64,000 bases of DNA from Myxococcota bacterium (GTDB lineage Bacteria > Myxococcota_A > UBA796 > CAJQPC01). The DNA lies in contig JAKLKD010000004.1 of assembly GCA_023150845.1 (NCBI GenBank), forward strand, positions 1,283-65,282. Reading direction: 5' to 3'. Below, piece after piece: positions 18,824-32,688 of this stretch. Both the position numbers and the translations under genes were made by a program. Each line of letters begins with the position of its first letter. The first letter of the stretch is position 1. A model generated the notes under the pieces. The model was given only the letters and a program-made list of their open reading frames with translations. It was not told where the DNA came from and did no database searches.

Positions 18824-19810
18824 ATGTCTGTCCCGACCACGATGCGCGCTGTCCACGTCGCCTCCCTCACCGGCCCCGACGCCGTCTCCATCGTCGAGCG
18901 CCCTGTCCCCGAGCCGGGCCCCGGCGAGGTGCTGGTGAAGGTGGGCGCGGGCGGGCTCAACTACGCCGACCTCATGCAGACGATGGGCCTCTACGTCGGC
19001 GGCCCGAAGGCCCCGTACTGGGCGGGCTTTGAGATCGCCGGAGAGGTCGTCGCCGCGGGCGAGGGCGCGTCTTGGCCCGTCGGGGCCCGGGTCATGGGCT
19101 TCGGCCAAGAGAGCTTCGCCGAGTACTCCATCGCCCACAGCGCCGCCCTGTTCCCCACCCCTGAAGGCTGGAGCGACGGCCAGGCCGTGAGCTTCCCCGT
19201 GCAGTGGCTCACCGCGCACGGCTGCTTACGCACCGTGGGCCGCCTCAAGGCCGGGGAGACCGTGCTCATCCACGCCGTCGCCGGGGGCGTCGGCCTCGCC
19301 GCGCTGCGCCTGGCCAAACGCTTCGGCGCCATCACCATCGGCACGGCGTCGAGCCCGGAGAAGCTCGCCATGGCCGCCGAGCGTGGCCTCGACCACGGCA
19401 TCGACTACACCAAGGTGAGCCTCGTGGACGAGGTGAAGCGCATCACCGGCGGCAAAGGCGTGGACCTCGTGCTGGAGATGGTCGGCGGCGAGACCTTACA
19501 CCAGAGCTGGGACGTCACCCGGCGCTACGGCCGCATCGTCGTCTACGGCGCCGCCAGCGGCGAGGCCGCGAAGATCGACAACGTGCGCCTCATCTTCAAC
19601 CCCGTCGAGTTCATCGGCTACCACATCACCCAGCTCATCGCCGGGCGCCCGGACCTCTTCGCCGAGGAGATGGCCGAGGTCACCGAGCTCCTCAAGGCCG
19701 GGGTGATGACCCCCGAGTCGCCGACCTCCTGGCCCGTGGACCTCATCCAAGACGCCCTGCGCGCCTTGGGCGAGCGCAAGACCACGGGCAAGCAGGTGGT
19801 GGTGTTCTGA
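18824..19810 (+). CDS. NADPH:quinone oxidoreductase (MDR/zeta-crystallin family)
   Basis: PEPGPGEVLVKV, LNYAD, IHAVAGGVG, GKGVDLVLE, GKQVV; ATG after AGGAG. Confidence 0.9.
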   Translation: MSVPTTMRAVHVASLTGPDAVSIVERPVPEPGPGEVLVKVGAGGLNYADLMQTMGLYVGGPKAPYWAGFEIAGEVVAAGEGASWPVGARVMGFGQESFAEYSIAHSAALFPTPEGWSDGQAVSFPVQWLTAHGCLRTVGRLKAGETVLIHAVAGGVGLAALRLAKRFGAITIGTASSPEKLAMAAERGLDHGIDYTKVSLVDEVKRITGGKGVDLVLEMVGGETLHQSWDVTRRYGRIVVYGAASGEAAKIDNVRLIFNPVEFIGYHITQLIAGRPDLFAEEMAEVTELLKAGVMTPESPTSWPVDLIQDALRALGERKTTGKQVVVF

Positions 19811-19811
19811 C

Positions 19812-21023
19812 CTAGACCCACGAGGGCAGACGCTGGAGGTGGCGCTCGATCATGGCCACCTCCCGCGCGTCGAACCCCAGCGCGCCGCGCTCCTGGGACC
19901 AGACCGCCTCGGCTCGCTCACGCGCCTCTCGGGCAAGGCGGGCGAGCTCCGCGTGGCTCATCTCCAACGCGCGGGCGAGCTTGTCCCAGCGGGCGGGCTT
20001 GGCGTCCTCAAAGCGTCTTGATCCGCCCAAGGTCAACGCCATCTCGTCATCCCCGAACACCACGCAGCTCACCAGATCATAGGCGGGCGACAGTCTCGGA
20101 TGGCGTCGGTCCGCGTAGATCACTCCCCAGTTCTTCCAGTGAGCGTCGGCGTTGCCGCACACGAGCATGAATATCAGGCGCCGGATCCATTGAGTGACAT
20201 CCTCTGGACACAACCTCGCGACTAGCCGCGCCATCTCCTCGTAGGAGCCGTACCCTAATCCAAGTTCGTAATCCAAACTACAGCCGATGATCTGGCCGAA
20301 GTCTTCCACATGCACTCGACCACCACCATCAGACCGATCGAAGCGCTCGGCGAGGAGGACGACGCCATTTCGAGGCTTGACACCTTCGGGCAGCACAATC
20401 CCCTCATCACGAATTGACGAGATACGAACCCGATGAGTCTCAACCCCAGATCGACGCGCCCATAGCGTCGTCGCATGCTCGACCTCGGGCATTCTATCGA
20501 ACTTAGAATCCTCAAACTTAGCGATGAAGTCGCCCGCCTCACCGTAGACGGGGCAGACGAATGCGCCCGCGTCGCGCCGATACGACACCTTCATCTGCAT
20601 TCCATGCAACCCGAAGGCGAAGGTTCCCGGCGGAACCTCGGGACGTCGCGCTGCGACCATCCCGCCGTCCACGCTCATGGCGCGCTGAACCGTGACCGCA
20701 CCCGGCAGGTCATTGCCGATCGCCACCAAGAGATCAAGATCAGACGATTCATCATCCAAGACAACCGACCCCGCCACGATCCGTCTCACCGTCCGTGTTG
20801 GAAGGATGTGCGCGAACCAGTTGGGAACCCCAGAGGCGCGGATCGGCCTGGGGCGAGAATCCTCAAACTGCTGCCCTAAAATGGGGCGCTGCCCATCCTT
20901 CAGCCACGCACCATCAAACACGAACAGATGGTCATAGCCGCTGCTCGCGTTGGCGTCGAATCCCAAGAACTCCAGGTGACCGACCAGGACCTCGTGAACA
21001 TACACGAAGGCCACCTGAATCAA
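19812..21023 (-). CDS. HipA-family kinase (N-terminal coupling domain plus kinase domain)
   Basis: VPNWFAHILP, DLPGAV, GLHGMQMK, IAKF, ERFDR, EDFGQ, GNADAHWKNW, LSPAYDL; TTG start overlaps the upstream TGA. Confidence 0.9.
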   Translation of the reverse strand: MIQVAFVYVHEVLVGHLEFLGFDANASSGYDHLFVFDGAWLKDGQRPILGQQFEDSRPRPIRASGVPNWFAHILPTRTVRRIVAGSVVLDDESSDLDLLVAIGNDLPGAVTVQRAMSVDGGMVAARRPEVPPGTFAFGLHGMQMKVSYRRDAGAFVCPVYGEAGDFIAKFEDSKFDRMPEVEHATTLWARRSGVETHRVRISSIRDEGIVLPEGVKPRNGVVLLAERFDRSDGGGRVHVEDFGQIIGCSLDYELGLGYGSYEEMARLVARLCPEDVTQWIRRLIFMLVCGNADAHWKNWGVIYADRRHPRLSPAYDLVSCVVFGDDEMALTLGGSRRFEDAKPARWDKLARALEMSHAELARLAREARERAEAVWSQERGALGFDAREVAMIERHLQRLPSWV

Positions 21024-22597
21024 GCCGCACCACCCATCAAGTACGCGATCGCGGGACGGTCGTTCTCACCCGGCGCAGCGAGACGCAAGATCAGCTCGTC
21101 AAGCTCGACGCTCAGCGCGAGCCCGCGCAGACGAATAAACTCGGTCTCATCGCCCGACTCAAGGGCAGAGAGCATCGTGTCGTCGAGCAGGAGGCTATAG
21201 GGGTCGGGCGCGCCAAAGGGCGTCGCGGACTCGTGATCCTCGGAAGCTCTGAGTTTTTTGGCTCTCCACACACGGGAGGCGATGGTTTTTTCATGGGCTG
21301 GGCAGACCGACCGGAAGAGCTCGCTGAGGTTATGAGCCTCAAGCTCGCACTGGAGCGCGCTCAGCGTGAGCATGTCCGTGCTTAGCAGACGACTGGACAG
21401 CGTGAGCGCACAGAACCGAGTGTTCGCACCGCCGCCGTTCCACACGGCCAACGGATCCGGCGCACGAAGCTCACGCGGCACCCGGGTCAAGAGCCGCTGA
21501 ACCGAGTCCGTCGGATCCTGGCCGATGTCCATCAACTGGCGGTGAATCACCTCGTTGGAGGTGTTCGCGTGGACACCAGAGAGCGCGCCGCGCCATAGCC
21601 AGCGCACGAGCAAGGTGCGGTCACGCGGGTTGAGCTGGGGGTGGAGGTCAAAGAGCCGCGCAAGTACGATGAGCGTCCCACGATACGGGAGCAGGGCGCT
21701 GTGCGGGATCTCAGCCTCTGTGATGATGAAGTCGCAGGCCCGCGTGAGCGCCTGGATCACGCGGTTGATGAGCGCGCTGTCGGGCCGGTCTTGCTCAGAG
21801 AACTCCCGGCGGGGGTTCGGGTCGCGAACGGCGCGAACGCAGCGTAAGAGCCAGTCCTCGGAGAGCTTACCAAAGCCCGTGCTCCGATGAAGCTCCTCCG
21901 CGAGCCGCGCCAAGGGCTGGTCCTCATCAGCACCAAAAAGCGCGTTAAAGACTTCGGAGTCCTTGAGCGCAATGCCCGCGTTGTTTACCCGAGAGAAGAT
22001 GAGCTTAAGTACCTCCGCGGTGGCATCTACGACGATGTACGCGGGCACCGCGTAGTTCATAATCGTCGCCTCGAGATCAAAGGCACGTTCCACCAATTCT
22101 TCCGTCTCACTCCCCGCTTGAAAGGACCGTGACCATTGATGGAGCTTCTTCCGATCTCCGATGACGTTGAGCGGGAGCCAAGCCAGCTCAGTTGGTGCTG
22201 TCCGCATGACCTTGAACGTGTAGTCCCTAAGGTTCACCCAAACCGAATGGATACCCCCAGTTGGACTCTTGGTCGGGTGACGCAGCGTTCCGATGAGCGC
22301 CGTGACCCGTTGCTGGCCATCCACGAGCAACAGCCCCTCACGCTGCTCGGGCGCCTTAACCTCCACGGGCCCGAACCGCTCGACGCCCGCAGGAAGCTCT
22401 TTGCTCCAGAGCAGCAGGCTGCCGATGGGGAAGCCACGCACGATGCTGTCGAAGAGCTCGACGACGTTCTCCGAGCTCCAGCGCAGCGGCCGCTGAAACT
22501 TAGGCACCCTCAGCCTCCCCTCCTGAGCCGCAGAGAGGATGTCTTCGACCTTAAGAGACTCTGCGCGAGGACGCTTGGGAAGAGAAGGGAGACTCAT
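21020..22597 (-). CDS. DUF262 (ParB-like NTPase, GmrSD/SspE-related) protein with degenerate C-terminal region
   Basis: VPKFQR..W, DSIVRGFPIGSLLLW, VDGQQRVT, FSRVNNAG; no intact (D/E)HxxP HNH motif seen. Confidence 0.88.
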   Translation of the reverse strand: MSLPSLPKRPRAESLKVEDILSAAQEGRLRVPKFQRPLRWSSENVVELFDSIVRGFPIGSLLLWSKELPAGVERFGPVEVKAPEQREGLLLVDGQQRVTALIGTLRHPTKSPTGGIHSVWVNLRDYTFKVMRTAPTELAWLPLNVIGDRKKLHQWSRSFQAGSETEELVERAFDLEATIMNYAVPAYIVVDATAEVLKLIFSRVNNAGIALKDSEVFNALFGADEDQPLARLAEELHRSTGFGKLSEDWLLRCVRAVRDPNPRREFSEQDRPDSALINRVIQALTRACDFIITEAEIPHSALLPYRGTLIVLARLFDLHPQLNPRDRTLLVRWLWRGALSGVHANTSNEVIHRQLMDIGQDPTDSVQRLLTRVPRELRAPDPLAVWNGGGANTRFCALTLSSRLLSTDMLTLSALQCELEAHNLSELFRSVCPAHEKTIASRVWRAKKLRASEDHESATPFGAPDPYSLLLDDTMLSALESGDETEFIRLRGLALSVELDELILRLAAPGENDRPAIAYLMGGAA

Positions 22598-22677
22598 AGC
22601 CCACCTTTTACCTCGACAGGAGCGGCCACACAACTGCGCCGCCGCACAACCGCACCACGGCCTCGATGGGTCCGCCC

Positions 22678-23706
22678 TCACACCGCCTGGGGCACGCCGC
22701 CCAGCGCGTCCTCGGCCTCGTAGTCCTCCTCACGCTTCGGCGCGCCGGGCTCGGGGCCCTCGCCCATGAGGGCGCGCAGGCCCGCCGGGGGGAGCGGCTT
22801 CTGGCCGGCGAGCTGGCTGAGGTACTCGTGGTGGAAGTAGTAGGGCCGCAGGGGCTCGGGGACGATCTCCCGGGCCTTCTTGTGGTACGCGGGGAGGCTG
22901 TACCAGGGCACCGAGAAGTTGGCGTGGTGCTCAAAGTGGTAGTTGATGTTGAAGGGCGAGAAGACCACGGCCACGGGGTAGAAGTAGGTGCGGGAGCGGA
23001 GCAGCCGGTCGGGCTCCTGGGCGAGGCCGCCGCCGTGCTCTTGGGCCTTCTTCAGGTAGTTGAGGATCGAGACCACCTGGAAGCCCACGACGAGGGCCGC
23101 GGGCACCACCCAGCCGAAGACGGCCCAGCTCGCGGCGATGATCGGCGCCCAGACGGCCACGCCGATGGCCGCGCGCTTGAGCTGGCCAGGGTACTGCTTC
23201 GAGGGGTTGTAGGCCACGAACGAGAGCGGGATGAGCGCCAGGATGAGCAGGCGCTTGTAGAGCTCCCAGCCGGTGATGGGGAAGCGGTCCTGGGGGTCGT
23301 CCTCCTCGCAGGGGCGCAGGTGGTGGATGGTGTGGCCCTTCTCCCAGTGGCGGATGTAGTCGGTGAAGAACAGCCAGCCCGCGAACACCCCGACGGCGCG
23401 GTTGAGGCGCTTGCCGCGCTCCCGGTCGGCGCTGAGCACGAACATGTTGTGGCTACATTCATGGATGATGAGCACGTTCACGCCGAAGTAGACGACGCCG
23501 AAGATCACCCCCGCGACGGGGATGTACAGCGCCGCGGGCAGGGCGGCGGAGAGCATCATCGCCAACAAGGAGACGAGCACGAGCACGAGGGTGCCGAAGC
23601 CGTTGATGAGGTTGTGCCGAAGGGGATCCTTCTTCATCGCGTGAAGGTCGTTTCCGGCCGTGACCACCTCGCGCATCCAGGCCGGGCGCTTCTGTGGCTT
23701 CTCCAT
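22678..23706 (-). CDS. Membrane-bound fatty acid desaturase
   Basis: Three His boxes HECSH, HTIHH and HFEHH; TM segments. Confidence 0.9.
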   Translation of the reverse strand: MEKPQKRPAWMREVVTAGNDLHAMKKDPLRHNLINGFGTLVLVLVSLLAMMLSAALPAALYIPVAGVIFGVVYFGVNVLIIHECSHNMFVLSADRERGKRLNRAVGVFAGWLFFTDYIRHWEKGHTIHHLRPCEEDDPQDRFPITGWELYKRLLILALIPLSFVAYNPSKQYPGQLKRAAIGVAVWAPIIAASWAVFGWVVPAALVVGFQVVSILNYLKKAQEHGGGLAQEPDRLLRSRTYFYPVAVVFSPFNINYHFEHHANFSVPWYSLPAYHKKAREIVPEPLRPYYFHHEYLSQLAGQKPLPPAGLRALMGEGPEPGAPKREEDYEAEDALGGVPQAV

Positions 23707-23853
23707 GATCCTTGTCTCCTGATGGCGTTGGAGGCAGGGGGTGTCGCCTCCGGGACAACCAATCTATCCCGGCGGGCGCGGCGCGGGCGGACGGATGTGT
23801 GATAAGCCACACGGCCCTGCCGATCCCCTGATCTTGGCCAGCCCTGGAGCCCC

Positions 23854-24945
23854 ATGCGAGTTCTCTCCGTCGGACGGGCCTTCCCGCCGAACTACTACGA
23901 CCAGGAGACGCTCATCGCCGCCTTCACCCAGCACTGGGCGAGCGCGATGCACAACCAGCGGCGCCTGGAGCAGCTTCACCGGCACGTGCTCGTCGGCGGC
24001 CGCCACCTCGCCCTGCCGATGGAGGAGTACCTCGGCCTCAACGGCTTCACCGACGCCAACAACCGCTGGATCACCGTGGCCCAAGAGGTCGGCGGCGCCG
24101 CGGTGCTCGACGCCTTGGCCCGTGCTGGGCTGCGCCCGGAGCAGCTCGGCGCCTTCTTCTTCACGACGGTGACCGGCCTCGCGACGCCCTCCATCGACGC
24201 CCGGCTCATCAACCGCCTCGGCCTGCCCGACCACCTCAAGCGGGTGCCGATCTTCGGCCTGGGCTGCGTCGCCGGGGCCGCCGGGGTCGCCCGGGCCGCG
24301 GACTATGTGCGCGCCTTCCCCGACGAGGCCGCCCTCTTGCTGTCCGTCGAGCTCTGCTCCCTCACCATGCAGCGCCAGGACGTGTCGATCCCGAACCTCA
24401 TCAGCTCCGGGCTCTTTGGGGACGGGGCGGCCTGCGCCGTCGTCGCCGGGGAGCGCCTCGCCGCGCGGCTCGCCGAGGAGGGCGGGGTCGGGGCCCAGGC
24501 CGCGGCGGACGGCCCGCAGGTGCTCGCCACCCGCTCGGTGTTCTACCCGAACAGCGAGGACGTCATGGGCTTGGACATCTCCGAGCGCGGCTTCCGCATC
24601 GTGCTCTCCGCCGGGGTGCCCGAGGTCGTGAAGGCCCACCTGCGCGGCGACGTGGACCGCTTCTTGGCCAGCCAGGGCCTCAGCCTCCAGGACATCTCCT
24701 CCTGGGTCTGCCACCCCGGCGGGCCCAAGGTGCTCGAGTCCTTTGAGGAGGTCCTGGAGCTCGGCCCCGAGGCCCTGGAGCTCACCTGGCGCTCCTTGCG
24801 GGAGGTGGGCAACCTCTCGTCCTCGTCGGTGCTCATGGTCCTGCGGGACACCATGGAGACGCGGCGCCCCGCCCGGGGGTCCTTGGGCCTGATGATCGCG
24901 ATGGGGCCGGGCTTCTGCTCCGAGCTCGTGCTCTTGAGGTGGTGA
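23854..24945 (+). CDS. Type III polyketide synthase (FtpA/SrsA-like)
   Basis: GLGCVAG, VELCS, LFGDG, CHPGGPK, GNLSS, MGPGF: intact Cys-His-Asn triad. Confidence 0.95.
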   Translation: MRVLSVGRAFPPNYYDQETLIAAFTQHWASAMHNQRRLEQLHRHVLVGGRHLALPMEEYLGLNGFTDANNRWITVAQEVGGAAVLDALARAGLRPEQLGAFFFTTVTGLATPSIDARLINRLGLPDHLKRVPIFGLGCVAGAAGVARAADYVRAFPDEAALLLSVELCSLTMQRQDVSIPNLISSGLFGDGAACAVVAGERLAARLAEEGGVGAQAAADGPQVLATRSVFYPNSEDVMGLDISERGFRIVLSAGVPEVVKAHLRGDVDRFLASQGLSLQDISSWVCHPGGPKVLESFEEVLELGPEALELTWRSLREVGNLSSSSVLMVLRDTMETRRPARGSLGLMIAMGPGFCSELVLLRW

Positions 24946-25514
24946 TGGACAGCCGCCTGCTCTACACCCTGCTCGTCGGGCTCATCGCCCTGGAGCGGCT
25001 CTATGAGCTGCGCCTGAGCGCCAAGAACGCCGCCTGGGCCATGGCCCGAGGGGGCGTCGAGCGCGGTCAGGGGCACTACCCGGCGATGGCGGCCTTACAC
25101 ACCGGGGGCCTCATCGCCGCGCCCGCGGAGGTCTGGCTCCTTGACCGCGCCTTCTCCCCGGCCTTGGGCGCGCTCTGCGGCGTGATCCTCGTGGGCACCA
25201 TGGCGCTGCGGTACTGGGCGGTGAGCACCCTAGGCCCACGCTGGAACACCCGGGTCATCGTGGTGCCCGGCCTGGGCCCGGTGACCGAGGGGCCCTACCG
25301 GCACCTGCGCCACCCGAACTACCTCGCCGTGATCCTTGAGCTAGGCGCTCTGCCGCTCCTGCACGGCGCTTGGATCACCGCCCTGGTCAGCTCGACGCTG
25401 AACGCCTGGCTCTTGACGGTGCGTATCCGGACCGAGGAGGCCGCGCTCAACGAGCTGTGCAATTATGGGGAGCATATGGGCACTAAGCCGAGGCTTGTGC
25501 CGGGCAAGGACTAG
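24945..25514 (+). CDS. Isoprenylcysteine carboxyl methyltransferase family (FtpB/SrsB-like O-methyltransferase)
   Basis: ERLYEL, LG.RWNTRV, GPYRHLRHPNY, RIRTEE. Confidence 0.9.
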   Translation: MDSRLLYTLLVGLIALERLYELRLSAKNAAWAMARGGVERGQGHYPAMAALHTGGLIAAPAEVWLLDRAFSPALGALCGVILVGTMALRYWAVSTLGPRWNTRVIVVPGLGPVTEGPYRHLRHPNYLAVILELGALPLLHGAWITALVSSTLNAWLLTVRIRTEEAALNELCNYGEHMGTKPRLVPGKD

Positions 25515-25517
25515 GCG

Positions 25518-25796
25518 ATGGACGACGCGGAGAAGGCCCTCGGGCCGGAGATGACGGAGGAGGCGCTCTTGGCGCTCATCGGCGAGATCGCCCAGACGAG
25601 GCTGGGATACGCGGGGTCGCTCACCAACGACACCCGGCTCGTCGAGGCCCTGGCCTTGGACTCGGTCCGCCTGCTCACCCTCGTCGTCGAGCTCGAGAAC
25701 CGCCTGGAGCTGTGCCTGGACGAGGGTGACGAGCAAGGCGTCGAGACCGTCGGCGAGCTCATCGCGCTCTTGAGGAGGCGTCGTGCTGAGGCTTGA
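25518..25796 (+). CDS. Acyl carrier protein (FtpC-like)
   Basis: LALDSV phosphopantetheine site; acidic; TVGEL. Confidence 0.88.
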   Translation: MDDAEKALGPEMTEEALLALIGEIAQTRLGYAGSLTNDTRLVEALALDSVRLLTLVVELENRLELCLDEGDEQGVETVGELIALLRRRRAEA

Positions 25797-27567
25797 GGGC
25801 GGGCGTGTGGTGGGCATGCACCCGACGCTGACCGCGACCTTACGCGCGGCGGCGGAGGCGAGCCCTAAAGGGGGGCTGCGGTTCCTCGACCGAAAGGAGC
25901 AGGTCACCGCGGTGTCTTGGGCCGCCGTCCTGGACGGGGCGAGCCGGGTGGCCGCCGGGCTGCACGCCCTGGGGCTCAACCCCGGCGAGCGCGTCGGGCT
26001 CATCTTCCCGACGAACCTCGGCTTCTTTGAGGGCTTCTTCGGGGCGCTCCTCGCGGGCGGGGTGCCGACGCCGCTCTACCCCCCGGCGCGCCTCGGGCGA
26101 ATGGAGGACTACCACGACCGCACGGCGCGGATGCTGCGGGCGGCGGGGGTCAAGTTGGCGCTTCTCGACCCCATGGTGCGACGGGTGATCGGCCCGACCA
26201 TTCAGCAGGCGCGACCGGCGCTCGGCGCCTTCACCTTGGACGCGCTGCCCCGGGGCGGCCCGCCCGCGCCGACCCCCAAGGACGACCCCAACGCCTTGGC
26301 GATGGTGCAGTTCAGCTCGGGCACCACCGTCGACCCCAAGCCCGTCGCGCTGACCCACCGGGCGGTGCTCGCCCAGACCGAGGCCATCGGAATTCAGGTG
26401 CTCCGCCTCGACCCCACCGCCCGGGCCGGGGTGAGCTGGCTGCCGCTCTACCACGACATGGGGCTCATCGGCTGCGTCTTCCCGGCCTTGGCCCAGGCCG
26501 GGGAGCTGACCCTCATCGGCCCGGAGCAGTTCTTGGCCCGGCCGGCGCTCTGGCTGCGCGCGCTCTCCCGCGCCCGCGCCGTGGCGTCCCCGGCGCCGAA
26601 CTTCGCCTACGCCTACTGCCTCCAGCGCATCACCGACGAGGAGCTCGACGGCGTAGACCTCAGCGCCTGGCGCCTCGCGCTCAACGGCGCCGAGCCCGTC
26701 TCCCCGGACACCCTGCGGGGCTTCTCGACACGCTTCGCCCGCTGGGGCCTGCGCCCCGAGGCGCTCACGCCGGTCTATGGGCTCTCCGAGGCGAGCCTCG
26801 CGGTGACCTTCGCCGAGGTAGACGCCCCCTTCCGGACCCTGCACGTCGACCGGGTGCGGCTCGCCGAGGGCGTGGCCGAGCCCTCCCCCGACGGCGTCGA
26901 GCTCGTGAGCGTCGGCCGCCCCGTCTTCGGCTTTGAGGTGGAGCTGCGCGGCCCCGACGGCCTCGACCCCCTGCCTGAAGGCCGGGTGGGCCGCCTCTTC
27001 GTGAGCGGGCCGAGCCTCATGCGCGGCTACCTCGACCAGCCTGAGGCCACGGCGCGGGCCCTGGTCGGCGGCTGGTTGGACACCGGGGACCTCGGCTTCT
27101 TGTGGGAGGGGGAGCTCTACCTCGTCGGCCGGGCGAAGGACGTGCTCATCCTCCGGGGCCGAAACCACCCGCCGCACCCCGTCGAGCAGGCCGTCGACGC
27201 GCTGCCGGGGGTGCGGGCGGGCTGCGCGGCGGCGGTGAGCTTCCGCCCCGAGGGCGCCGACCACGAGCTGCTCCTGCTGTTCATCGAGCGCCGGGCCGAC
27301 GCCAGCGCTGAAGACCTCGCCGCCTTGCCCGAGGCCGCGGCCCAGGCGGTGCTCCTCCAGACGAGCCTGCGCCCCGACGAGGTGATCGTGCTCGCCCCCG
27401 GCACCCTGCCGCGCACCTCCTCGGGCAAGATCCGCCGGGCGGAGACCCTGCGCCTGTTCACGGCGGGCCAGCTCTTGCCCCCGGAGGAGGTCGGCGCGCT
27501 CAAGATCGCGGGGATGATGGCGCGCTCCTGGCTCGCCTTCGCCCGGCTCCGGCTCGAGGGCTCGTGA
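25783..27567 (+). CDS. Fatty acyl-AMP ligase (FtpD-like)
   Basis: QFSSGTT.DPK, SWLPLYHDMGLIG, PNFAY, YGLSE, DTGDLG, LPRTSSGK. Confidence 0.92.
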   Translation: MLRLEGGRVVGMHPTLTATLRAAAEASPKGGLRFLDRKEQVTAVSWAAVLDGASRVAAGLHALGLNPGERVGLIFPTNLGFFEGFFGALLAGGVPTPLYPPARLGRMEDYHDRTARMLRAAGVKLALLDPMVRRVIGPTIQQARPALGAFTLDALPRGGPPAPTPKDDPNALAMVQFSSGTTVDPKPVALTHRAVLAQTEAIGIQVLRLDPTARAGVSWLPLYHDMGLIGCVFPALAQAGELTLIGPEQFLARPALWLRALSRARAVASPAPNFAYAYCLQRITDEELDGVDLSAWRLALNGAEPVSPDTLRGFSTRFARWGLRPEALTPVYGLSEASLAVTFAEVDAPFRTLHVDRVRLAEGVAEPSPDGVELVSVGRPVFGFEVELRGPDGLDPLPEGRVGRLFVSGPSLMRGYLDQPEATARALVGGWLDTGDLGFLWEGELYLVGRAKDVLILRGRNHPPHPVEQAVDALPGVRAGCAAAVSFRPEGADHELLLLFIERRADASAEDLAALPEAAAQAVLLQTSLRPDEVIVLAPGTLPRTSSGKIRRAETLRLFTAGQLLPPEEVGALKIAGMMARSWLAFARLRLEGS

Positions 27568-28688
27568 GCGCGTCCCGATCGCTGCTCGTCGTCGGCGGCG
27601 GCCCGGTGGGCCTCGCGGCGGCGATCCTGGGCCGGATGGACGGGCACGAGGTCACGCTCATCGAGCGCGGCCGGCCCCCGGTGGACAAGCCCTGCGGCGA
27701 GGGCCTCATGCCCAGCGGCGTGCTGCGCCTCCAGGCGATGGGCGTGACCCTCGACCCCGAGGGCCTGCACCCGTTCATGGGGGTGCGCTACATCGACGGG
27801 GAGCGGGAGGCCGGGGCGCGCTTCACCTTCGGCGAGGGCTACGGCTGCCGCCGCACCTACCTCCAGGCGGCGATGGCGCGGCGGGCGGAGGAGCTCGGCG
27901 TGGCGCTGCACTTCGGCCAAGAGGTCGTCGCCGTCGACGCCGATCAGGGGGAGGTCCGCACCGCCGATGGGCAGACCTTCCGGGCGGAGCTCGTGCTCGC
28001 CGCCGACGGCCTGCGCTCGACGGTACGAAAGCTCCTCCAGCTCGACGGGCCGCCGCCGTCCCGGCCACGGTTCGGGATGCGCCAGCACTACACGATCAAG
28101 CCCTGGACCGACGAGGTGGAGGTGTACTGGTCCGACACCGCCGAGGCCTACGTCACCCCCGTCGGCCCCAACCGTGTAGGCGTGGCGTTTTTGTGGTCCG
28201 GCGACGGCGAACGATTCCCGGGCCTGCTCAGCCGGTTCCCCGCGCTCCAAGAGAGGCTCGGGGACGCGCCGATCGAGAGCCAGGTGCGGGGCACGGGGCC
28301 GCTGCAGGTGCGGCCCAAGGCCGTGCTCAAGGGCAAGGTCGCGCTCATCGGCGACGCGGCGGGCTACTTCGACGCCATCACCGGGGAGGGCCTCACCTTA
28401 GGCTTCGCCCAGGCGGCGACTGTGCTCAAACACGTCGAGGAGGGCAGGCTCCAAGACTGGCCCAAGAGCCACAGAGGCCTCGTCATTGAGCCTTACCTCA
28501 TGATTCATCTGCTCTTGTTCATCGAGCGATACCCGCCCCTGCGCCGCCGGGTGATCGCCGCGCTGTCCAAAGACCCCGAGCTCTTTGAGCAGCTCTTGCA
28601 GATCAACGACGGCCTCCTGCGGCCCCACGAGCTGCCGCCGAAGGCGATCTTACGCCTCGTGTGGCGGGTGCTCTGGGGCGTGGGCTAA
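27564..28688 (+). CDS. FAD-dependent oxidoreductase/monooxygenase (SrsC-like)
   Basis: GGGPVG, DKPCGEG, AADG, GDAAG..DAITGEG. Confidence 0.88.
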   Translation: MSASRSLLVVGGGPVGLAAAILGRMDGHEVTLIERGRPPVDKPCGEGLMPSGVLRLQAMGVTLDPEGLHPFMGVRYIDGEREAGARFTFGEGYGCRRTYLQAAMARRAEELGVALHFGQEVVAVDADQGEVRTADGQTFRAELVLAADGLRSTVRKLLQLDGPPPSRPRFGMRQHYTIKPWTDEVEVYWSDTAEAYVTPVGPNRVGVAFLWSGDGERFPGLLSRFPALQERLGDAPIESQVRGTGPLQVRPKAVLKGKVALIGDAAGYFDAITGEGLTLGFAQAATVLKHVEEGRLQDWPKSHRGLVIEPYLMIHLLLFIERYPPLRRRVIAALSKDPELFEQLLQINDGLLRPHELPPKAILRLVWRVLWGVG

Positions 28689-28742
28689 ACTCCCCGGCGC
28701 CGCGCTCATCCTGAGCGGTGGTCCAAGGTTGGAGCGTTCGGT

Positions 28743-29060
28743 ATGTCGATCTCAGGTTTAGAGGGTCTGTCCAACGAGGACGTTCATGCACAGCTGAACA
28801 AGGGCGCGAAGTTTGTGCGTTATGGCTACTGCGTCTCCCTGCTCCTCGTCACCTTCCGGCGGGAGTCGGACATCCAGTTTATCCGATACGATCAGAGCGC
28901 CTTCCTGCGAGGTCTCCCCTACACCGGGCTCAGCCTGCTCGTGGGCTGGTGGGGCATCCCATGGGGCCTGATCTACACCCCCTGGGTGATCGGCGTGAAC
29001 TGCCTCGGCGGCCGCGACGTCACCGACGAGGTGCTGGCCGCGGCGCGGGGCGAGGGGTGA
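28743..29060 (+). CDS. Small conserved membrane hypothetical protein
   Basis: 105 aa; GWWGIPWG motif and C-terminal GGRDVT; hydrophobic segments. Confidence 0.65.
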   Translation: MSISGLEGLSNEDVHAQLNKGAKFVRYGYCVSLLLVTFRRESDIQFIRYDQSAFLRGLPYTGLSLLVGWWGIPWGLIYTPWVIGVNCLGGRDVTDEVLAAARGEG

Positions 29061-29078
29061 GGGGGTGAGGGGCTACGC

Positions 29079-29540
29079 TCAGCCAGCGCGGGTGAACCCA
29101 TGCTGGCTGAGCGGCGGCCTGAGGAGACACGGGCCCCAGGGGACGCCAGCGTCGCCCTCGGCGAGCATGAGGTGAAACTTCTTGAGAATCTCTAAGCCGA
29201 TGATGATGTCAGGGGCGTCCTTCGCGACGTATACCTCTACCTGGTGCTCTTCTCCCGCTAACACAACAGTACCTAAGAACACGTCGCAGCTTAGCGCACC
29301 GCCGTTTATTCCTCGAATCGGTCGGTTCATCTTGTGATAACCGGGATACGATTGATCAATCATCAAACCTGACGGGATGAGCAGAGCAAACTCCAGGCCT
29401 GTATCGACCACCACTTGGTTCAACGTGAGCGGTTCAGGCTGCTGATCCCAATGAAGCGTGACCTCGTTGAGAAACGCGACCAACCCAGACGCCTTGTAAT
29501 GTACCGGATGCCTGCCCCGAGGTGCTCCTCGCCTGCTCAA
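29079..29540 (-). CDS. Retropepsin-like (clan AA) aspartic protease
   Basis: VVVDTG catalytic motif, flap-like RGINGG, C-terminal IIIGLEIL; probable TTG start at 29540 immediately after the upstream TAA (start uncertain). Confidence 0.75.
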   Translation of the reverse strand: MSRRGAPRGRHPVHYKASGLVAFLNEVTLHWDQQPEPLTLNQVVVDTGLEFALLIPSGLMIDQSYPGYHKMNRPIRGINGGALSCDVFLGTVVLAGEEHQVEVYVAKDAPDIIIGLEILKKFHLMLAEGDAGVPWGPCLLRPPLSQHGFTRAG

Positions 29541-29541
29541 A

Positions 29542-30141
29542 TTACTCAAACCCCACCTCTTCGGACAGCCGCGTGATGTAGACGATCCCCTCATCAAGCT
29601 CCTCACGGGCCGCCTGAAGTGGATGTACGCCACCTTCACCAAGAAACAGTCGATCCGAGCCGATCACAACGCCGAGTGGGGCGCGGGGGTGCGTCTGACG
29701 CAGCGCCGGTCGCGCATGAAGCTGACGCCGAAGCGCCGCGCGGCCCAGAGCCACTTCTTGTTCACTGAGCGCCGGGGAGACAAGCTGCTCCTCCGGGAGC
29801 TGCACCCCACCCGCCCACGAGCTGAGGTGGGGCGCGGCGGCGAGCAGGGCCTTGCCGCTGTGTACGTCGAGGAGCACCACCAAGGGAGAGCGCAGGTCAC
29901 CGAACTGAGCGCGGCCTTCGTCCCATCGCTGGAAGGTGTCAGCGCGCAGAGGCCGAGCGTCGATGACCCGCACGGCGTCGGGCCTCGCGGCGAAGGCGTC
30001 GGTGACCACCTCGACGGGGCGTTCCAGCCGCTCGGCGAGCGCATGGGCGGCGGATTGTGCGTCGAGCTGGCGCGGCACCCGCTGAAGGACCAGCGGCAGG
30101 CCCGACCGAACCTGCATCACGACGAGGTCGAGGCTGTCCAC
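29542..30141 (-). CDS. Degenerate P-loop partner domain fused to a DUF5678-like C-terminal domain
   Basis: WDEGR...PLVVLL...AAAPHLSSW resembles the LN.xR..PLVxW..APDFWSW inactive-ATPase module; the tail LRQTHPRAPLGVVIGSDRLFLG...LQAAREE..GIVYITRL resembles DUF5678; GTG start overlaps the upstream TAG. Confidence 0.55.
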   Translation of the reverse strand: MDSLDLVVMQVRSGLPLVLQRVPRQLDAQSAAHALAERLERPVEVVTDAFAARPDAVRVIDARPLRADTFQRWDEGRAQFGDLRSPLVVLLDVHSGKALLAAAPHLSSWAGGVQLPEEQLVSPALSEQEVALGRAALRRQLHARPALRQTHPRAPLGVVIGSDRLFLGEGGVHPLQAAREELDEGIVYITRLSEEVGFE

Positions 30142-31223
30142 TAAAACACCTTCGGCGCGCCGATGAGGTTCCGGAGGACGGGATGCGGGAGCCAATAACG
30201 ACGATCGGGGAGGTCATACGGCAGAATGGCGTTCTTGCTGATGAGCGAGAGATCCCCCTCGTGGTTCAAGCTCTTCCCCACCAAGGCGACCTTCTTAAGC
30301 TCATCGGAAGAGAGCGACTGCGCGATGTCTTGGCGAAGCTCATTCAGCCCTTGATTTAGGTTCGCGGCGTTCACTTTGCCCGACTTGGCGGCGGAGAGCA
30401 CGGCGCTGTGCAGAATCCGGATCGCGTCTCTTGGTACACCGCCCGATGTGTAAGCGGCCACCTCGCAGCAGCGCGGGAGATCCCAGAAGGCGCCCTCAGC
30501 ACCCGCCAGGCGCTTCTGGAGTCCGGCGGCGAGGGTGCCAATGGCGGGCTCGTTGGGTGTCCCGTCGGATTGCTGCACTCCGAAGCAGGGCAGCTCCCAT
30601 ACGTACTCTAGGCGCGGGTCACGCCGCTCTCGGGGCGTGAGCGTGAACCAAGGATGAGCGCCGACAAAGACGACGGAAGGGAGTTCATCAAGGGGGAGGT
30701 TCTGTGCGGCGCCGAAGAAGGTGGCTTGATCATTTGAGAGGAGGTCAAGGCCATCGATCAGAAGGAGGCCTGGTAGATTGTTACCGCCGCTGAAAAAGTC
30801 ACGCTCAAACAGAAGGGTTGAGAGAACACCCTCACCTGTTTGATGTGAAACCGCTGCGGCATTTTCCCGCTCTTCCTCTGACGCGCCGAGCGCAAGCTTG
30901 ACGGCATCGAGGAGTTGACCAACCACATCCTTCGCCGTCCTCAGCTGCTGCGACGGCCTCCCCACCGACACCACCAAGACCTTCGCCACCCCCGACAACC
31001 CTTTTGCCCAACGCCGCAGCTCCGTCGTCTTCCCGACCCCGATCGGCCCATGCAGCACCGCGCGAACCGTCTGTCCTGCGGAGAGCATTAGCTCCATCTG
31101 CTCCAGCTTGTCCCACCCCCGAGCCATACCTTCCCACTCACGATCGACGTACTCTCCGTCATTCGCAGGCAGGGTCGGGTTCAGCCTCTTCAGAGCGTCG
31201 ATGATTAGCGGGTTGATGGCCAT
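30141..31223 (-). CDS. P-loop ATPase (AAA+/STAND-like)
   Basis: NP..P....YVDR, Walker A GPIGVGKTT, Walker B LLLIDGLD, SGGVPRDAIRIL, terminal WLPHP. Confidence 0.85.
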   Translation of the reverse strand: MAINPLIIDALKRLNPTLPANDGEYVDREWEGMARGWDKLEQMELMLSAGQTVRAVLHGPIGVGKTTELRRWAKGLSGVAKVLVVSVGRPSQQLRTAKDVVGQLLDAVKLALGASEEERENAAAVSHQTGEGVLSTLLFERDFFSGGNNLPGLLLIDGLDLLSNDQATFFGAAQNLPLDELPSVVFVGAHPWFTLTPRERRDPRLEYVWELPCFGVQQSDGTPNEPAIGTLAAGLQKRLAGAEGAFWDLPRCCEVAAYTSGGVPRDAIRILHSAVLSAAKSGKVNAANLNQGLNELRQDIAQSLSSDELKKVALVGKSLNHEGDLSLISKNAILPYDLPDRRYWLPHPVLRNLIGAPKVF

Positions 31224-31229
31224 TGGGGG

Positions 31230-31259
31230 AGTATAAAGCCCGCCCTCCCCCCTGGTCAA
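31230..31259 (-). promoter_or_regulatory. Sigma70-type promoter predicting a leaderless ATPase transcript
   Basis: Minus strand TTGACC (31254-31259), 18 bp spacer, TATACT (31230-31235), then CCCCCA-ATG (31223); no SD sequence. Confidence 0.6.
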
Positions 31260-31309
31260 CTCAGGCCCTCCCGCTTGTGCGAATCGCCAAGGGGGTGTAC
31301 CCTCCGGGC

Positions 31310-31735
31310 ATGGACCCAACCCTCGAAGACACGCTCCTCAAGCTCCTCCGCGCGCCTGACCGCCGACCGCTCGTGCTCGCCATGTGCGCCTGCGCTCGGC
31401 GGCAGCTCGCCGTCGCCGCCAAGGTGGACGCCCGCAACACCCGGCTCATCGAGACCGCTGAAGGGTGGGCCGCGGGGCGCGTCACGACCGTCGAGGCCCG
31501 GGAGGTCGCCTGGTGGGGTAAACAGGTGCCGGGGAGCCTCTTCCCGATGGCCTGCCTGCGGGTCATCGTCGCCCCCTCGGATGACCGCGAGGCCGCCGTC
31601 CGTATGCTCGCGACGCAGCTCCCGACGGTCGTCGCGATGGCGAAGCGCCCCCAGCCGCACGAGGCCCCGGCCCTCATCGCCGGGACGGTGCAGACCCTCC
31701 GCGCCCTCGCCGAGAGCGCCGCAGCGGCGGTTTAG
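31310..31735 (+). CDS. Hypothetical helical protein, possibly Imm5-like immunity protein
   Basis: AMCACARRQL...LIETAEGWAAG resembles the CAERVL..AIE.A..W..G pattern of Imm5-like proteins. Confidence 0.5.
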   Translation: MDPTLEDTLLKLLRAPDRRPLVLAMCACARRQLAVAAKVDARNTRLIETAEGWAAGRVTTVEAREVAWWGKQVPGSLFPMACLRVIVAPSDDREAAVRMLATQLPTVVAMAKRPQPHEAPALIAGTVQTLRALAESAAAAV

Positions 31736-32688
31736 GTCAGCGCGCCGCCGCAGCTCGAACCCGCCCCGGCCGTACACCCGAAGCAGTGACGCCCTACGGT
31801 GATGGGCGCGCCGTCGAGCTCGGACACCCGACCGAGCTCCCGCACATGGCGCCGCGGCCCTGGCGAGGGCAGCCCGAGCATCTGATTGAAGTCACAGTCG
31901 TACAGCCCGCCGTCCCATGAGACGCTCACGAGGTGACGACACATGAGCCCCGGGACCGTCGCGGCGTTGAAGCTCGACTCCAAGAGGGCCTCGTACTGTG
32001 TGGTCTTGCCTTGGCGAGAGAGGTCCGCGGCGAAGCGCGCGATGGGCAGGTTGGTCAAGGTGAGCAGGTTCGTGAACACGAGGCCGTGGTCATCGCGCAA
32101 GCGACGGCGGTAATCGGCCTCCAAGGCGGCCTGGCTCGGGGGCAGGTGGGCGCCGCCGGGGTTGTACACGAGGCTCAGGGTGAGGCCCGCGCCGGGCTGG
32201 CCATACCCCAAGGCGTTCAGCCGCCGCAGCGCCTCGACGCTGGCGTCGTACACCCCGCGGCCGCGCTGGCGCTCGACGTTGTCCCGGAGGTAACAGGGCA
32301 TCGACGCGACAATCTCGACGCCCTCGGCGGCCAAGAACGCGGCGGTGTCCTCCTGGCCGGGCTCCAAGAGCACGGTGAGGTTGCAGCGGTCCATCACCCG
32401 GCGCCCCAAGGACCGCCCGCCGCGCACGAGGTCGCGGAAGCGTGGGTGCAGCTCAGGGGCGCCCCCGGTGATGTCGAGCAGGCCGAGGCTCGGGTTCGCC
32501 GCGAGGGCGCGGAGCACGTCCTCGACGACCTCGTCGGGCATCTGCTCCTTCCGGTGGGGCCCGGCGTCGACGTGGCAGTGGGCGCAGGTCTGGTTGCAGC
32601 GTTTGCCCAGGTTGACCTGGAGCCAGGACGGCGACTCCCGGCGCAGCGGGCCCAGCCCGGCCTGGTGGAGCGCGTCCTCAAAGGTCAT
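31732..32688 (-). CDS. arsS: Radical SAM protein, ArsS/DUF3641 family
   Basis: LQVNLGKRCNQTCAHCH, DITGGAPE, MC...SV.WDG.LYDCDFNQM, HCFGCTAGAGSSCGGAL. Confidence 0.88.
   Translation of the reverse strand: MTFEDALHQAGLGPLRRESPSWLQVNLGKRCNQTCAHCHVDAGPHRKEQMPDEVVEDVLRALAANPSLGLLDITGGAPELHPRFRDLVRGGRSLGRRVMDRCNLTVLLEPGQEDTAAFLAAEGVEIVASMPCYLRDNVERQRGRGVYDASVEALRRLNALGYGQPGAGLTLSLVYNPGGAHLPPSQAALEADYRRRLRDDHGLVFTNLLTLTNLPIARFAADLSRQGKTTQYEALLESSFNAATVPGLMCRHLVSVSWDGGLYDCDFNQMLGLPSPGPRRHVRELGRVSELDGAPITVGRHCFGCTAGAGSSCGGALT

Follow-up and report, generated by a model that had tools for sequence, protein, structure and literature searches.

A conserved two-gene cassette has a GmrSD-related DUF262 protein in the position of HipB beside a HipA-family kinase

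SspE and DndI sense phosphorothioates in DNA and are precedents for the use of a DUF262 protein as a sensor of DNA modification. Together with BrxU they are anti-phage proteins, according to the titles of their PDB entries. A DUF262 protein without a DUF1524 nuclease also occurs in ptuXYZ, beside a toxin-type effector, and a role in defence was proposed for this system (Gerdes, 2025, PMC11980606). On the side of the Hip kinases, the published classification distinguishes ten gene organisations, none of which has a DUF262 partner in the accessible portion of the text (Gerdes et al., 2021, PMC8262856), and the names DUF262, GmrSD and ParB are absent from its supplementary files as far as these were accessible. 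For hipIN and hipL, the same paper proposes that abortive infection is set off when a HIRAN DNA-binding partner or domain detects phage DNA (PMC8262856). Here we describe a locus in which a DUF262 gene is followed directly by a Hip kinase gene. It lies in a stretch of 64,000 nucleotides from a Myxococcota bacterium (GenBank assembly GCA_023150845.1, contig JAKLKD010000004.1, positions 1,283 to 65,282), hereafter the window, whose own numbering is used throughout. The name DUF262* denotes the nuclease-dead, GmrSD/BrxU-homologous DUF262 protein of the cassette and its subfamily.

The DUF262* gene occupies positions 21020..22597 of the minus strand and encodes 525 amino acids (aa). Its open reading frame (ORF) extends over 21020..22681 (553 aa from a GTG codon), with the motif AAGGTGG ahead of the ATG at 22597, and 525 aa is also the length of close homologues. 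The gene of the HipA-family Ser/Thr kinase (19812..21023, minus strand, 403 aa) begins with TTG, and the two genes overlap in the four bases TTGA (21020..21023, minus strand); at the junction, gcggcTTGAttc, three bases are common to the TGA stop of DUF262* and the TTG start of HipA. The earliest possible HipA start is -4 to +3 nt from the DUF262* stop in the window and in 15 of 32 related loci. Upstream, an 80-bp spacer containing the ribosome-binding site AAGGTGG (22598..22677, minus strand) separates the cassette from a fatty-acid desaturase gene (Pfam FA_desaturase) that is read from the same strand and ends 80 bp before the DUF262* ATG; downstream, a convergent Zn-dehydrogenase gene has its stop 1 nt from that of HipA. 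No helix-turn-helix (HTH) gene of the HipB type was found beside the pair among the ORFs and Pfam matches of both flanks, for which the 80-bp and 1-nt spacers indeed leave no room, and the ORF list contains no small gene between or beside the two. The G+C content is 0.60-0.645 over 19.5-23 kb and 0.69-0.72 on both sides. A first-pass annotation of the window, made from the letters and the ORFs, had described this overlapping pair, with a 525-aa DUF262 protein, a lower G+C content and no HTH antitoxin gene on either side, and the ORFs, translations, junction sequence, composition and flanking genes agree with it in each respect.

We examined the DUF262* protein at the level of motifs, family alignment and fold. 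Pfam recognised GmrSD_N/DUF262 over residues 17-221 (1.4e-25), corresponding to an N-terminal nucleoside triphosphatase (NTPase) domain of the ParB/Srx fold (21935..22549, minus strand), in which the QR, DGQQR and FxRxN motifs appear as FQRPLRW, DGQQR and FSRVN. These motifs had been called intact, and both the translation and the family alignment support this: R30, W40, D50, S51, P57, G59, D93, G94, R97 and N205 are invariant in 31 family members, and the 16 BrxU-like proteins of our comparison alignment (~600 aa, taken from the fetched loci) are invariant at the same N-domain positions. An AlphaFold2 model of DUF262*, built from the 31-sequence alignment with a mean predicted local distance difference test (pLDDT) of 87, matched BrxU (7p9k) over its whole length (Foldseek E 3.3e-11; VIA Z 15.5, root-mean-square deviation (rmsd) 13.0, 453 residues aligned, 10-512 vs 1-583), and ParB and sulfiredoxin structures matched its N-domain with Z 4-6.4.

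Profile alignment of the DUF262* family with the BrxU-like proteins by hhalign gave a probability of 100, E 2.9e-43 and 487 columns (11-512 vs 22-600). The invariant HNH columns of the BrxU-like proteins, H494, H495, P498, N513, N516 and N525 (HH..P, N, N, N; n=16), aligned to columns that are not conserved in the DUF262* family; as we read this alignment, the first five of them are occupied by H, N, S, K and S in the window protein. Across their C-terminal half, the 31 family members do not share a single invariant H, D or N. A DUF1524/HNH-homologous region without the catalytic residues is thereby placed at about residues 380-512 (21062..21460, minus strand), and the absence of an HNH motif noted at first pass finds support in this alignment. 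The Pfam DUF1524 model matched none of the 31 members, but 18 generic DUF262 ORFs, the 16 BrxU-like ones among them, likewise went unmatched, so that this negative carries no weight. Full-length homology, the N-domain invariants that were kept and the HNH columns that were not conserved together mark DUF262*, by its sequence, as a descendant of GmrSD in which the NTPase domain is intact and the nuclease domain inactivated. Its family is sizeable, the DUF262* profile matching 2319 cluster representatives (50% identity) at E<=1e-30, and the best 150 of them are all full-length matches of 481-682 aa.

The kinase carries HipA_C (2.8e-40) and, at residues 7-112, Couple_hipA (2e-11). Its core (residues 139-375; 19899..20609, minus strand) contains the motifs FGLHGMQMK, HVEDFGQ, GNADAHWKN and SPAYD, the last two of which had been given as evidence of an intact kinase and are indeed present in the translation. 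HipT (7ab3) is the closest solved structure (6.2e-12), E. coli HipA matching at 6.6e-5. Residues G141, K145, D293, H295, K297, N298 and D316 do not vary among the 23 kinases aligned, and the catalytic motifs are conserved across 33 paired kinases. As a separate observation, the HipA partner is fused to a C-terminal S-adenosylmethionine (SAM)-dependent methyltransferase in Corallococcus praedator (L004:1899-3899) and in a Myxococcaceae metagenome-assembled genome (MAG; L005:1844-3844), giving proteins of 666 aa whose added domain matches Methyltransf_25 (2.8e-12) and PADLOC mad2 (3e-14, residues 448-565).

The conservation of the pairing was surveyed with a scan guided by the DUF262* profile, using one genome per species, and 79 loci were fetched. 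HipA was directly downstream on the same strand in 32 of the 79, and these 32 are found among the 38 loci whose DUF262 ORF scores at least 97 bits against the window protein; none of the 40 generic DUF262 loci (at most 81 bits) has HipA downstream. The paired loci belong to Myxococcota, Planctomycetota, Actinomycetota, Pseudomonadota and Acidobacteriota, and order, strand and adjacency were kept over these five phyla at 30-40% identity. As for the six high-scoring loci without the pair, one is at a contig end (L023), one has a partial DUF262 ORF (L036), two are from Bacteroidota (L034 and L037) and two are without HipA (L010 and L022). Within the Myxococcota sample, the family was present in 37 of 401 genomes (E<=1e-30) and HipA was adjacent in 27 of the 29 fetched loci, the remaining two being one locus at a contig end and one without HipA. 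The neighbourhood singled out by the first-pass annotation is thus conserved in its HipB-less form, in 32/38 related loci and 27/29 Myxococcota loci. Cultivable, non-pathogenic bacteria are among the carriers: the pair occurs in Azospirillum sp. B510, on plasmids of A. argentinense, in Myxococcus and Corallococcus and in several actinomycetes. Two Azospirillum plasmids carry it, one of them conjugative, with recombinase and type IV secretion system (T4SS) genes near the conjugative copy; four other plasmid matches are partial only. The Prokaryotic Genome Annotation Pipeline (PGAP) labels the Azospirillum pair 'DUF262 domain-containing protein' and 'type II toxin-antitoxin system HipA family toxin'.

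The two genes also diverged together. Pairwise distances of DUF262* and HipA correlate with r 0.82, a value reached in 0 of 2000 permutations and to which shared ancestry contributes, and the nearest neighbours of the two proteins agree in 20 of 30 cases. No third conserved gene was found, since no flanking ORF family occurred in more than 2 of 33 loci in an all-against-all BLAST of the ORFs within 3 kb. The cassette is a two-gene unit, and the whole of it (19811..22671, minus strand) is a presence/absence segment. In the same-genus genome G317 the dehydrogenase and desaturase stops are 13 bp apart and window 19811-22671 (2.86 kb) is absent; a contig from an unrelated sample likewise shows an empty site, 19810 being joined to 22668 with 2857 bases skipped. 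Two further genomes of this genus carry the pair at that site, G050 in decayed form.

We then considered the pairing from the side of the kinase, with a profile of 23 paired kinases searched against the same 401 Myxococcota genomes. The matches fell into two score tiers. In the top tier (41 matches, at least 266 bits), 34 kinases are adjacent to DUF262* by a cross-check of coordinates, one of the 34 by hidden Markov model (HMM); three are truncated or at a contig end, and four (L121-L124) have an upstream HTH_3 gene of the HipB type. These four are among the highest scores (424-447 bits) and belong to classical hipBA modules. In the next tier (182-224 bits, 12 fetched), none of the 12 has DUF262* upstream and 11 have HTH_3 upstream. 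A quick maximum-likelihood tree (IQ-TREE, midpoint-rooted) of 30 DUF262-linked, 4 HipB-linked, 12 next-tier kinases and 1 AbiJ-linked kinase recovered the 30 DUF262-linked and the 4 HipB-linked kinases as one group against the next-tier and AbiJ-linked ones, with a Shimodaira-Hasegawa-like approximate likelihood ratio test (SH-aLRT) support of 100. The HipB-linked kinases formed one clade (100), nested within the DUF262-linked set with a weak support of 87-89. The reciprocal search and the tree thus show that DUF262* and HipB are alternative upstream partners of one kinase lineage; given the nesting support and the midpoint rooting, the partner swap may have gone in either direction. The HipB-less pairing noted at first pass holds, and DUF262* occupies the position of HipB relative to the closest sister kinases. 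One of the HipB-linked loci, L122 of the Myxococcota genome G158, has a feature of its own. Its hipBA module belongs to the DUF262-linked kinase lineage, and about 2.3 kb upstream of it stands a second HipA-like gene, a divergent one (123 bits), with an AbiJ gene directly behind it (AbiJ_NTD3 5e-62, Abi_C 9e-26); the region (L122:1253-6585) may be a small defence islet.

A complex of the two proteins was predicted from their own alignments in three runs, alongside three controls. DUF262* is predicted to bind HipA, with a median ipSAE of 0.82 (0.83, 0.82, 0.75) against 0.00 for the best control; of 157 solved complexes 116 come up to this mark, and of 215 mismatched pairs 2 do, counts that apply only roughly because our own alignments were used. 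At least 77% of contacts are common to the runs, and the pLDDT of the partner is at least 79. We know of no solved DUF262-HipA complex, so that a pass from the memory of a solved structure is unlikely. The partnership suggested at first pass is joined by a predicted contact.

In the predicted complex the docking element is the C-terminal tail of DUF262* (residues 501-523; 21029..21097, minus strand), with the core E-N-D-R-P-A-I, whose least-error residues are P517 and R516 in D515-R516-P517; further DUF262* contacts are predicted at residues 323-328 and 406. The tail would contact a loop of the HipA N-subdomain (residues 42-59, ..RPILGQQFED..; 20847..20900, minus strand), the predicted HipA contacts being 42-45, 51-52 and 54-59, plus 245-247, 263-271 and 307-309. 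This D-R-P (DRP) tail is conserved among the 31 family members, and of 141 further representatives 85 carry D[RT]P within their last 40 aa; the tail is missing in both PDC-M55C-type proteins without HipA and in 3 of 5 Myxococcota family members without an intact HipA. On the side of the kinase, DUF262-linked kinases have LG(Q/L)xFE in the loop (exact in 27 of 30), where the 4 HipB-linked sisters read LSLSFKG and the 12 hipBA kinases that are more distant read S..LPL. In an actinobacterial/gammaproteobacterial clade with T for R in the tail, position 55 of HipA is mostly occupied by E, Q or N instead of D. At the level of sequence, the predicted interface fits a covariation with the type of partner. 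The C-termini of the sister HipB proteins (L121-L124) end in acidic tails, ..E-R-P-L-Y-A-x-D.. or ..T-S-L-Y-A-D-D.., that are reminiscent of the DRP tail; the HipA loop facing them differs from the DUF262-linked one, and this likeness is a lead only.

These data bear on the simplest alternative, that the genes are unlinked, an orphan HipA and a degenerate restriction-enzyme relic travelling together. Each gene is lost or decayed in some genomes, as such an origin would allow, but adjacency, order and strand kept over five phyla with overlapping or abutting stop and start codons, the 34/41 of the reciprocal test, the correlated divergence, a complex prediction that passes its controls and a HipA loop that covaries with the partner all argue for a functional link, and we consider chance company highly improbable.

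We put at about even the chance that the two genes form a toxin-partner module of the Hip kinase family, with an NTP/DNA-responsive sensor-antitoxin. By analogy with known Hip kinases, HipA would shut down translation by phosphorylating an aminoacyl-tRNA synthetase. DUF262* would derive from a restriction enzyme of the GmrSD/BrxU type that kept the NTPase and the scaffold, lost the HNH residues and gained the DRP tail. It would take the place of HipB, its synthesis being matched to that of HipA via translational coupling, and its tail, as predicted, would dock on the N-subdomain loop and the adjoining core of HipA and hold the kinase. The NTPase/DNA-binding body would then be the switch, a nucleotide- or DNA-dependent change (e.g., on foreign or modified DNA) freeing or activating HipA, and the released kinase would cause growth arrest or abortive infection. 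Toxicity, neutralisation, trigger and defence role are what we infer for the pair. The mechanism that we favour, a sensor-antitoxin releasing a translation-blocking kinase, is consistent with everything seen, and we hold its being right and its being wrong in rough balance.

A defence role of the cassette is plausible; the homology to BrxU, SspE and DndI, the place of the subfamily in the PADLOC candidate system PDC-M55, the patchy distribution, the indel polymorphism and the foreign G+C content speak for it. The main rival, which we rate as rather unlikely, is a plain addiction or stabilisation module, in which DUF262* would be a large antitoxin, possibly a DNA-binding autorepressor, that senses no foreign DNA and serves plasmid or islet stabilisation or persistence. 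The position of DUF262* in place of HipB, the translational coupling and the predicted binding would be expected of such a module too, as would the copy beside recombinase and T4SS genes on a conjugative Azospirillum plasmid; ParB-fold proteins bind DNA, and the defence-island context is weak. Against this, 525 aa with strictly conserved NTPase motifs far exceed the needs of a tether, the same subfamily has other partners in the candidate defence system PDC-M55, and the solved relatives of DUF262* are all anti-phage proteins.

Several observations weigh against the sensor-antitoxin mechanism or against its role in defence, and we gather them here. The cassette of the window is flanked by metabolic genes. 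Among the nearest-neighbour ORFs, 6 of 116, in 6 of 32 loci, matched PADLOC models (E<=1e-10: PDC-M28C, PDC-S07, HEC-01B, mad8/HerA, PDC-S48 and PDC-S09), a count that has no background rate beside it. Viral carriage was not found, 0 of 79 DUF262 loci on viral contigs having HipA by tblastn, and a phage collection gave no match to the family at 1e-20; carriage on a conjugative plasmid fits addiction equally well. Decay is recurrent: in G050 (L085/L113) there is a TGA inside DUF262* and an internal deletion in HipA, in G285 (L128) DUF262* was kept and only N- and C-terminal remnants of HipA persist, and in Streptomyces venezuelae ATCC 10712 strain L12 (L008) the HipA matches are in three pieces in different frames. 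Evidently, the loss of one gene does not make the remaining one lethal, and DUF262* occurs without HipA at L010, L022, L129, L130, L131 and L132. Such repeated decay, of HipA or of the whole pair, is what costly accessory modules typically show, defence or addiction alike.

Other points on the same side concern the proteins. The predicted interface misses the Gly-rich loop and the catalytic loop of HipA. It leaves the active site uncovered and so does not point to inhibition by simple occlusion. The covariation of the interface with the partner, for its part, rests on few independent evolutionary events. The Gly-rich loop of the window kinase (20588-20614) reads FGLHGMQMK against a family consensus of FSLAGVQLK, with Gly in place of the autophosphorylation Ser, which we take to correspond to S150 of E. 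coli HipA; 29 of 31 related kinases that align at this loop read (F/H/Y/P)S(L/V)(A/G)G.(Q/G/A).K. The substitution recurs in the nearest relative, G202 (FGLAGAQIK), and thus looks like a lineage trait rather than damage. With this Ser missing, the window kinase may be regulated differently from the rest of the family, and perhaps it also differs in activity.

The position of the predicted contact, away from the kinase active site, together with the occurrence of DUF262* without HipA in several genomes and the full conservation of its N-domain, leads to another possibility, that the roles are reversed. DUF262* would then be the effector, as an NTP-driven DNA clamp or roadblock or as a ParB-like N-domain nuclease, and HipA would be a regulator that phosphorylates it; a coupling of the ParB/Srx NTPase to nuclease activity was proposed in the accessible passages of the GmrSD phylogenomics paper (PMC4619093). 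The HipA-family kinases characterised so far are, in the part of the classification available, all toxins acting on translation factors (Gerdes et al., 2021, PMC8262856), the sister kinases sit in classical hipBA modules, and the HNH residues of DUF262* are lost. Reversed roles thus appear quite improbable to us.

A narrower version of the sensor-antitoxin mechanism is that a restriction-enzyme scaffold was rewired into an immune sensor that reads nucleotides and foreign, possibly modified, DNA and releases a tethered HipA, which blocks translation, instead of cutting; we regard this as possible, if somewhat doubtful. If true, the cassette would be an abortive-infection system akin to type IV restriction, with a kinase as its effector, and the DRP peptide a portable HipA-inhibiting module. 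The sensing body of GmrSD could then be uncoupled from its nuclease and wired to another effector; in PDC-M55 the same body stands with an ATPase pair. Toxin-antitoxin biology and persistence have a model in the Hip kinases, to whose classification the pair would add an organisation with a large enzyme-derived protein in the antitoxin position.

Around the cassette, a sigma-70 consensus scan of 19600-22900 gave 0 promoter sites, and a terminator scan gave only 2 terminator-like sites, on the wrong strand and within chance expectation. An RNA-library contig (~91% identical) spans only 19781-20147 of the cassette region; it could come from read-through from the convergent dehydrogenase gene or from DNA carry-over into the library. 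Beside the cassette, at 22678-28688, lie genes for the desaturase, a type III polyketide synthase (Chal_sti_synt), an ICMT-family methyltransferase, an acyl-AMP ligase and a flavin adenine dinucleotide (FAD)-dependent oxidoreductase, together with a 92-aa ORF that is, by its sequence, a putative carrier protein; we take this cluster to resemble phenolic-lipid (srs-type) clusters. A second stretch of lower G+C content (28500-31500, 0.61-0.66) contains several ORFs without Pfam matches and an ORF (30141-31319, minus strand) with weak AAA_22/AAA_16 matches, and is followed by a radical-SAM/DUF3641 gene (31732-32688, minus strand). Elsewhere in the same genome, a further DUF262 gene is present on another contig (G000:C432:18747-19670; 27% identity over residues 11-295), and a weak HipA-like match (G000:C106:20021-20368, E 1.8e-7) lies on yet another contig, not beside the second DUF262 gene.

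A published description of a DUF262-HipA pair was not found in an open full-text search, subscription-only papers and newer defence catalogues being outside its scope, and HipA is not mentioned in the text passages and five supplements available of the GmrSD phylogenomics paper (PMC4619093). The first-pass annotation had presented the pair as a candidate system, and no entry naming it as a system was found in the Hip classification or in PADLOC. The pair is absent from the former, as published, and from the latter as a pair; it is a widespread, unnamed Hip-kinase module.

Among the systems that share the DUF262 protein, BrxU/GmrSD (7p9k; PADLOC HEC-05/06) is the closest, with full-length homology, the same QR, DGQQR and FxRxN invariants and the same layout of N-domain, helical linker and C-terminal DUF1524-type domain. 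The differences are that the BrxU/GmrSD HNH residues are not conserved in DUF262*, that the DRP tail is extra in DUF262*, and that BrxU-type enzymes stand alone whereas DUF262* is paired with a kinase gene. SspE and DndI resemble DUF262* in their DUF262 N-domain and multi-domain layout, but the similarity (Foldseek E 3e-4 to 6e-4; VIA Z 8.3-8.9, rmsd 10.5-16.2, 262-414 residues aligned with the model) is much weaker than for BrxU, and both retain a nuclease effector. PtuX is shorter, without the C-terminal domain, and is partnered by a PtuA-like ATPase and a PIN-BECR RNase rather than by a kinase (PMC11980606).

PADLOC places the subfamily in PDC-M55, a candidate system of an AAA_15/21 ATPase (A), a component listed as unknown (B) and a DUF262 protein (C), to which the subfamily contributes component C. 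PDC-M55C matches the window protein at 4.9e-53, but only over residues 13-359 of 525 and profile positions 13-386 of 554, which makes this protein at most a tentative C component. The A and B genes are absent at the window locus, where HipA is found instead, and HipA matches no PDC-M55 model. A full-text search by name found no literature on PDC-M55. A complete PDC-M55 is present in a Bacteroidota MAG (L037:494-4377), with A (1.2e-74, an AAA_15/21 ATPase with DUF3696), B (2.5e-36, 321 aa) and C (1.2e-132) followed by a TPR protein. From this Bacteroidota context it appears that the DUF262* body combines with different partners.

Among the systems that share the kinase, hipIN and hipL likewise couple a Hip kinase to a nucleic-acid-related domain. 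Their partner is HipS-like with HIRAN, whereas here it is a ParB/Srx NTPase with a dead HNH domain; their kinases are without N-subdomain 1, which the window kinase has, and a HipS-like domain is their counterpart of the tether that is predicted here to be a C-terminal peptide. In hipBST the kinase is also without N-subdomain 1 and HipS is separate, as opposed to a window kinase with Couple_hipA at 7-112 and no small gene. It is with hipBA that the kinase has most in common: the N-subdomain, all catalytic motifs and a bicistronic operon with an overlapping upstream partner gene are shared, and the nearest kinases outside the DUF262-linked set belong to genuine hipBA modules. The difference lies in the upstream partner, which in hipBA is an HTH protein of ~100 aa and here is a GmrSD-derived NTPase of 525 aa.

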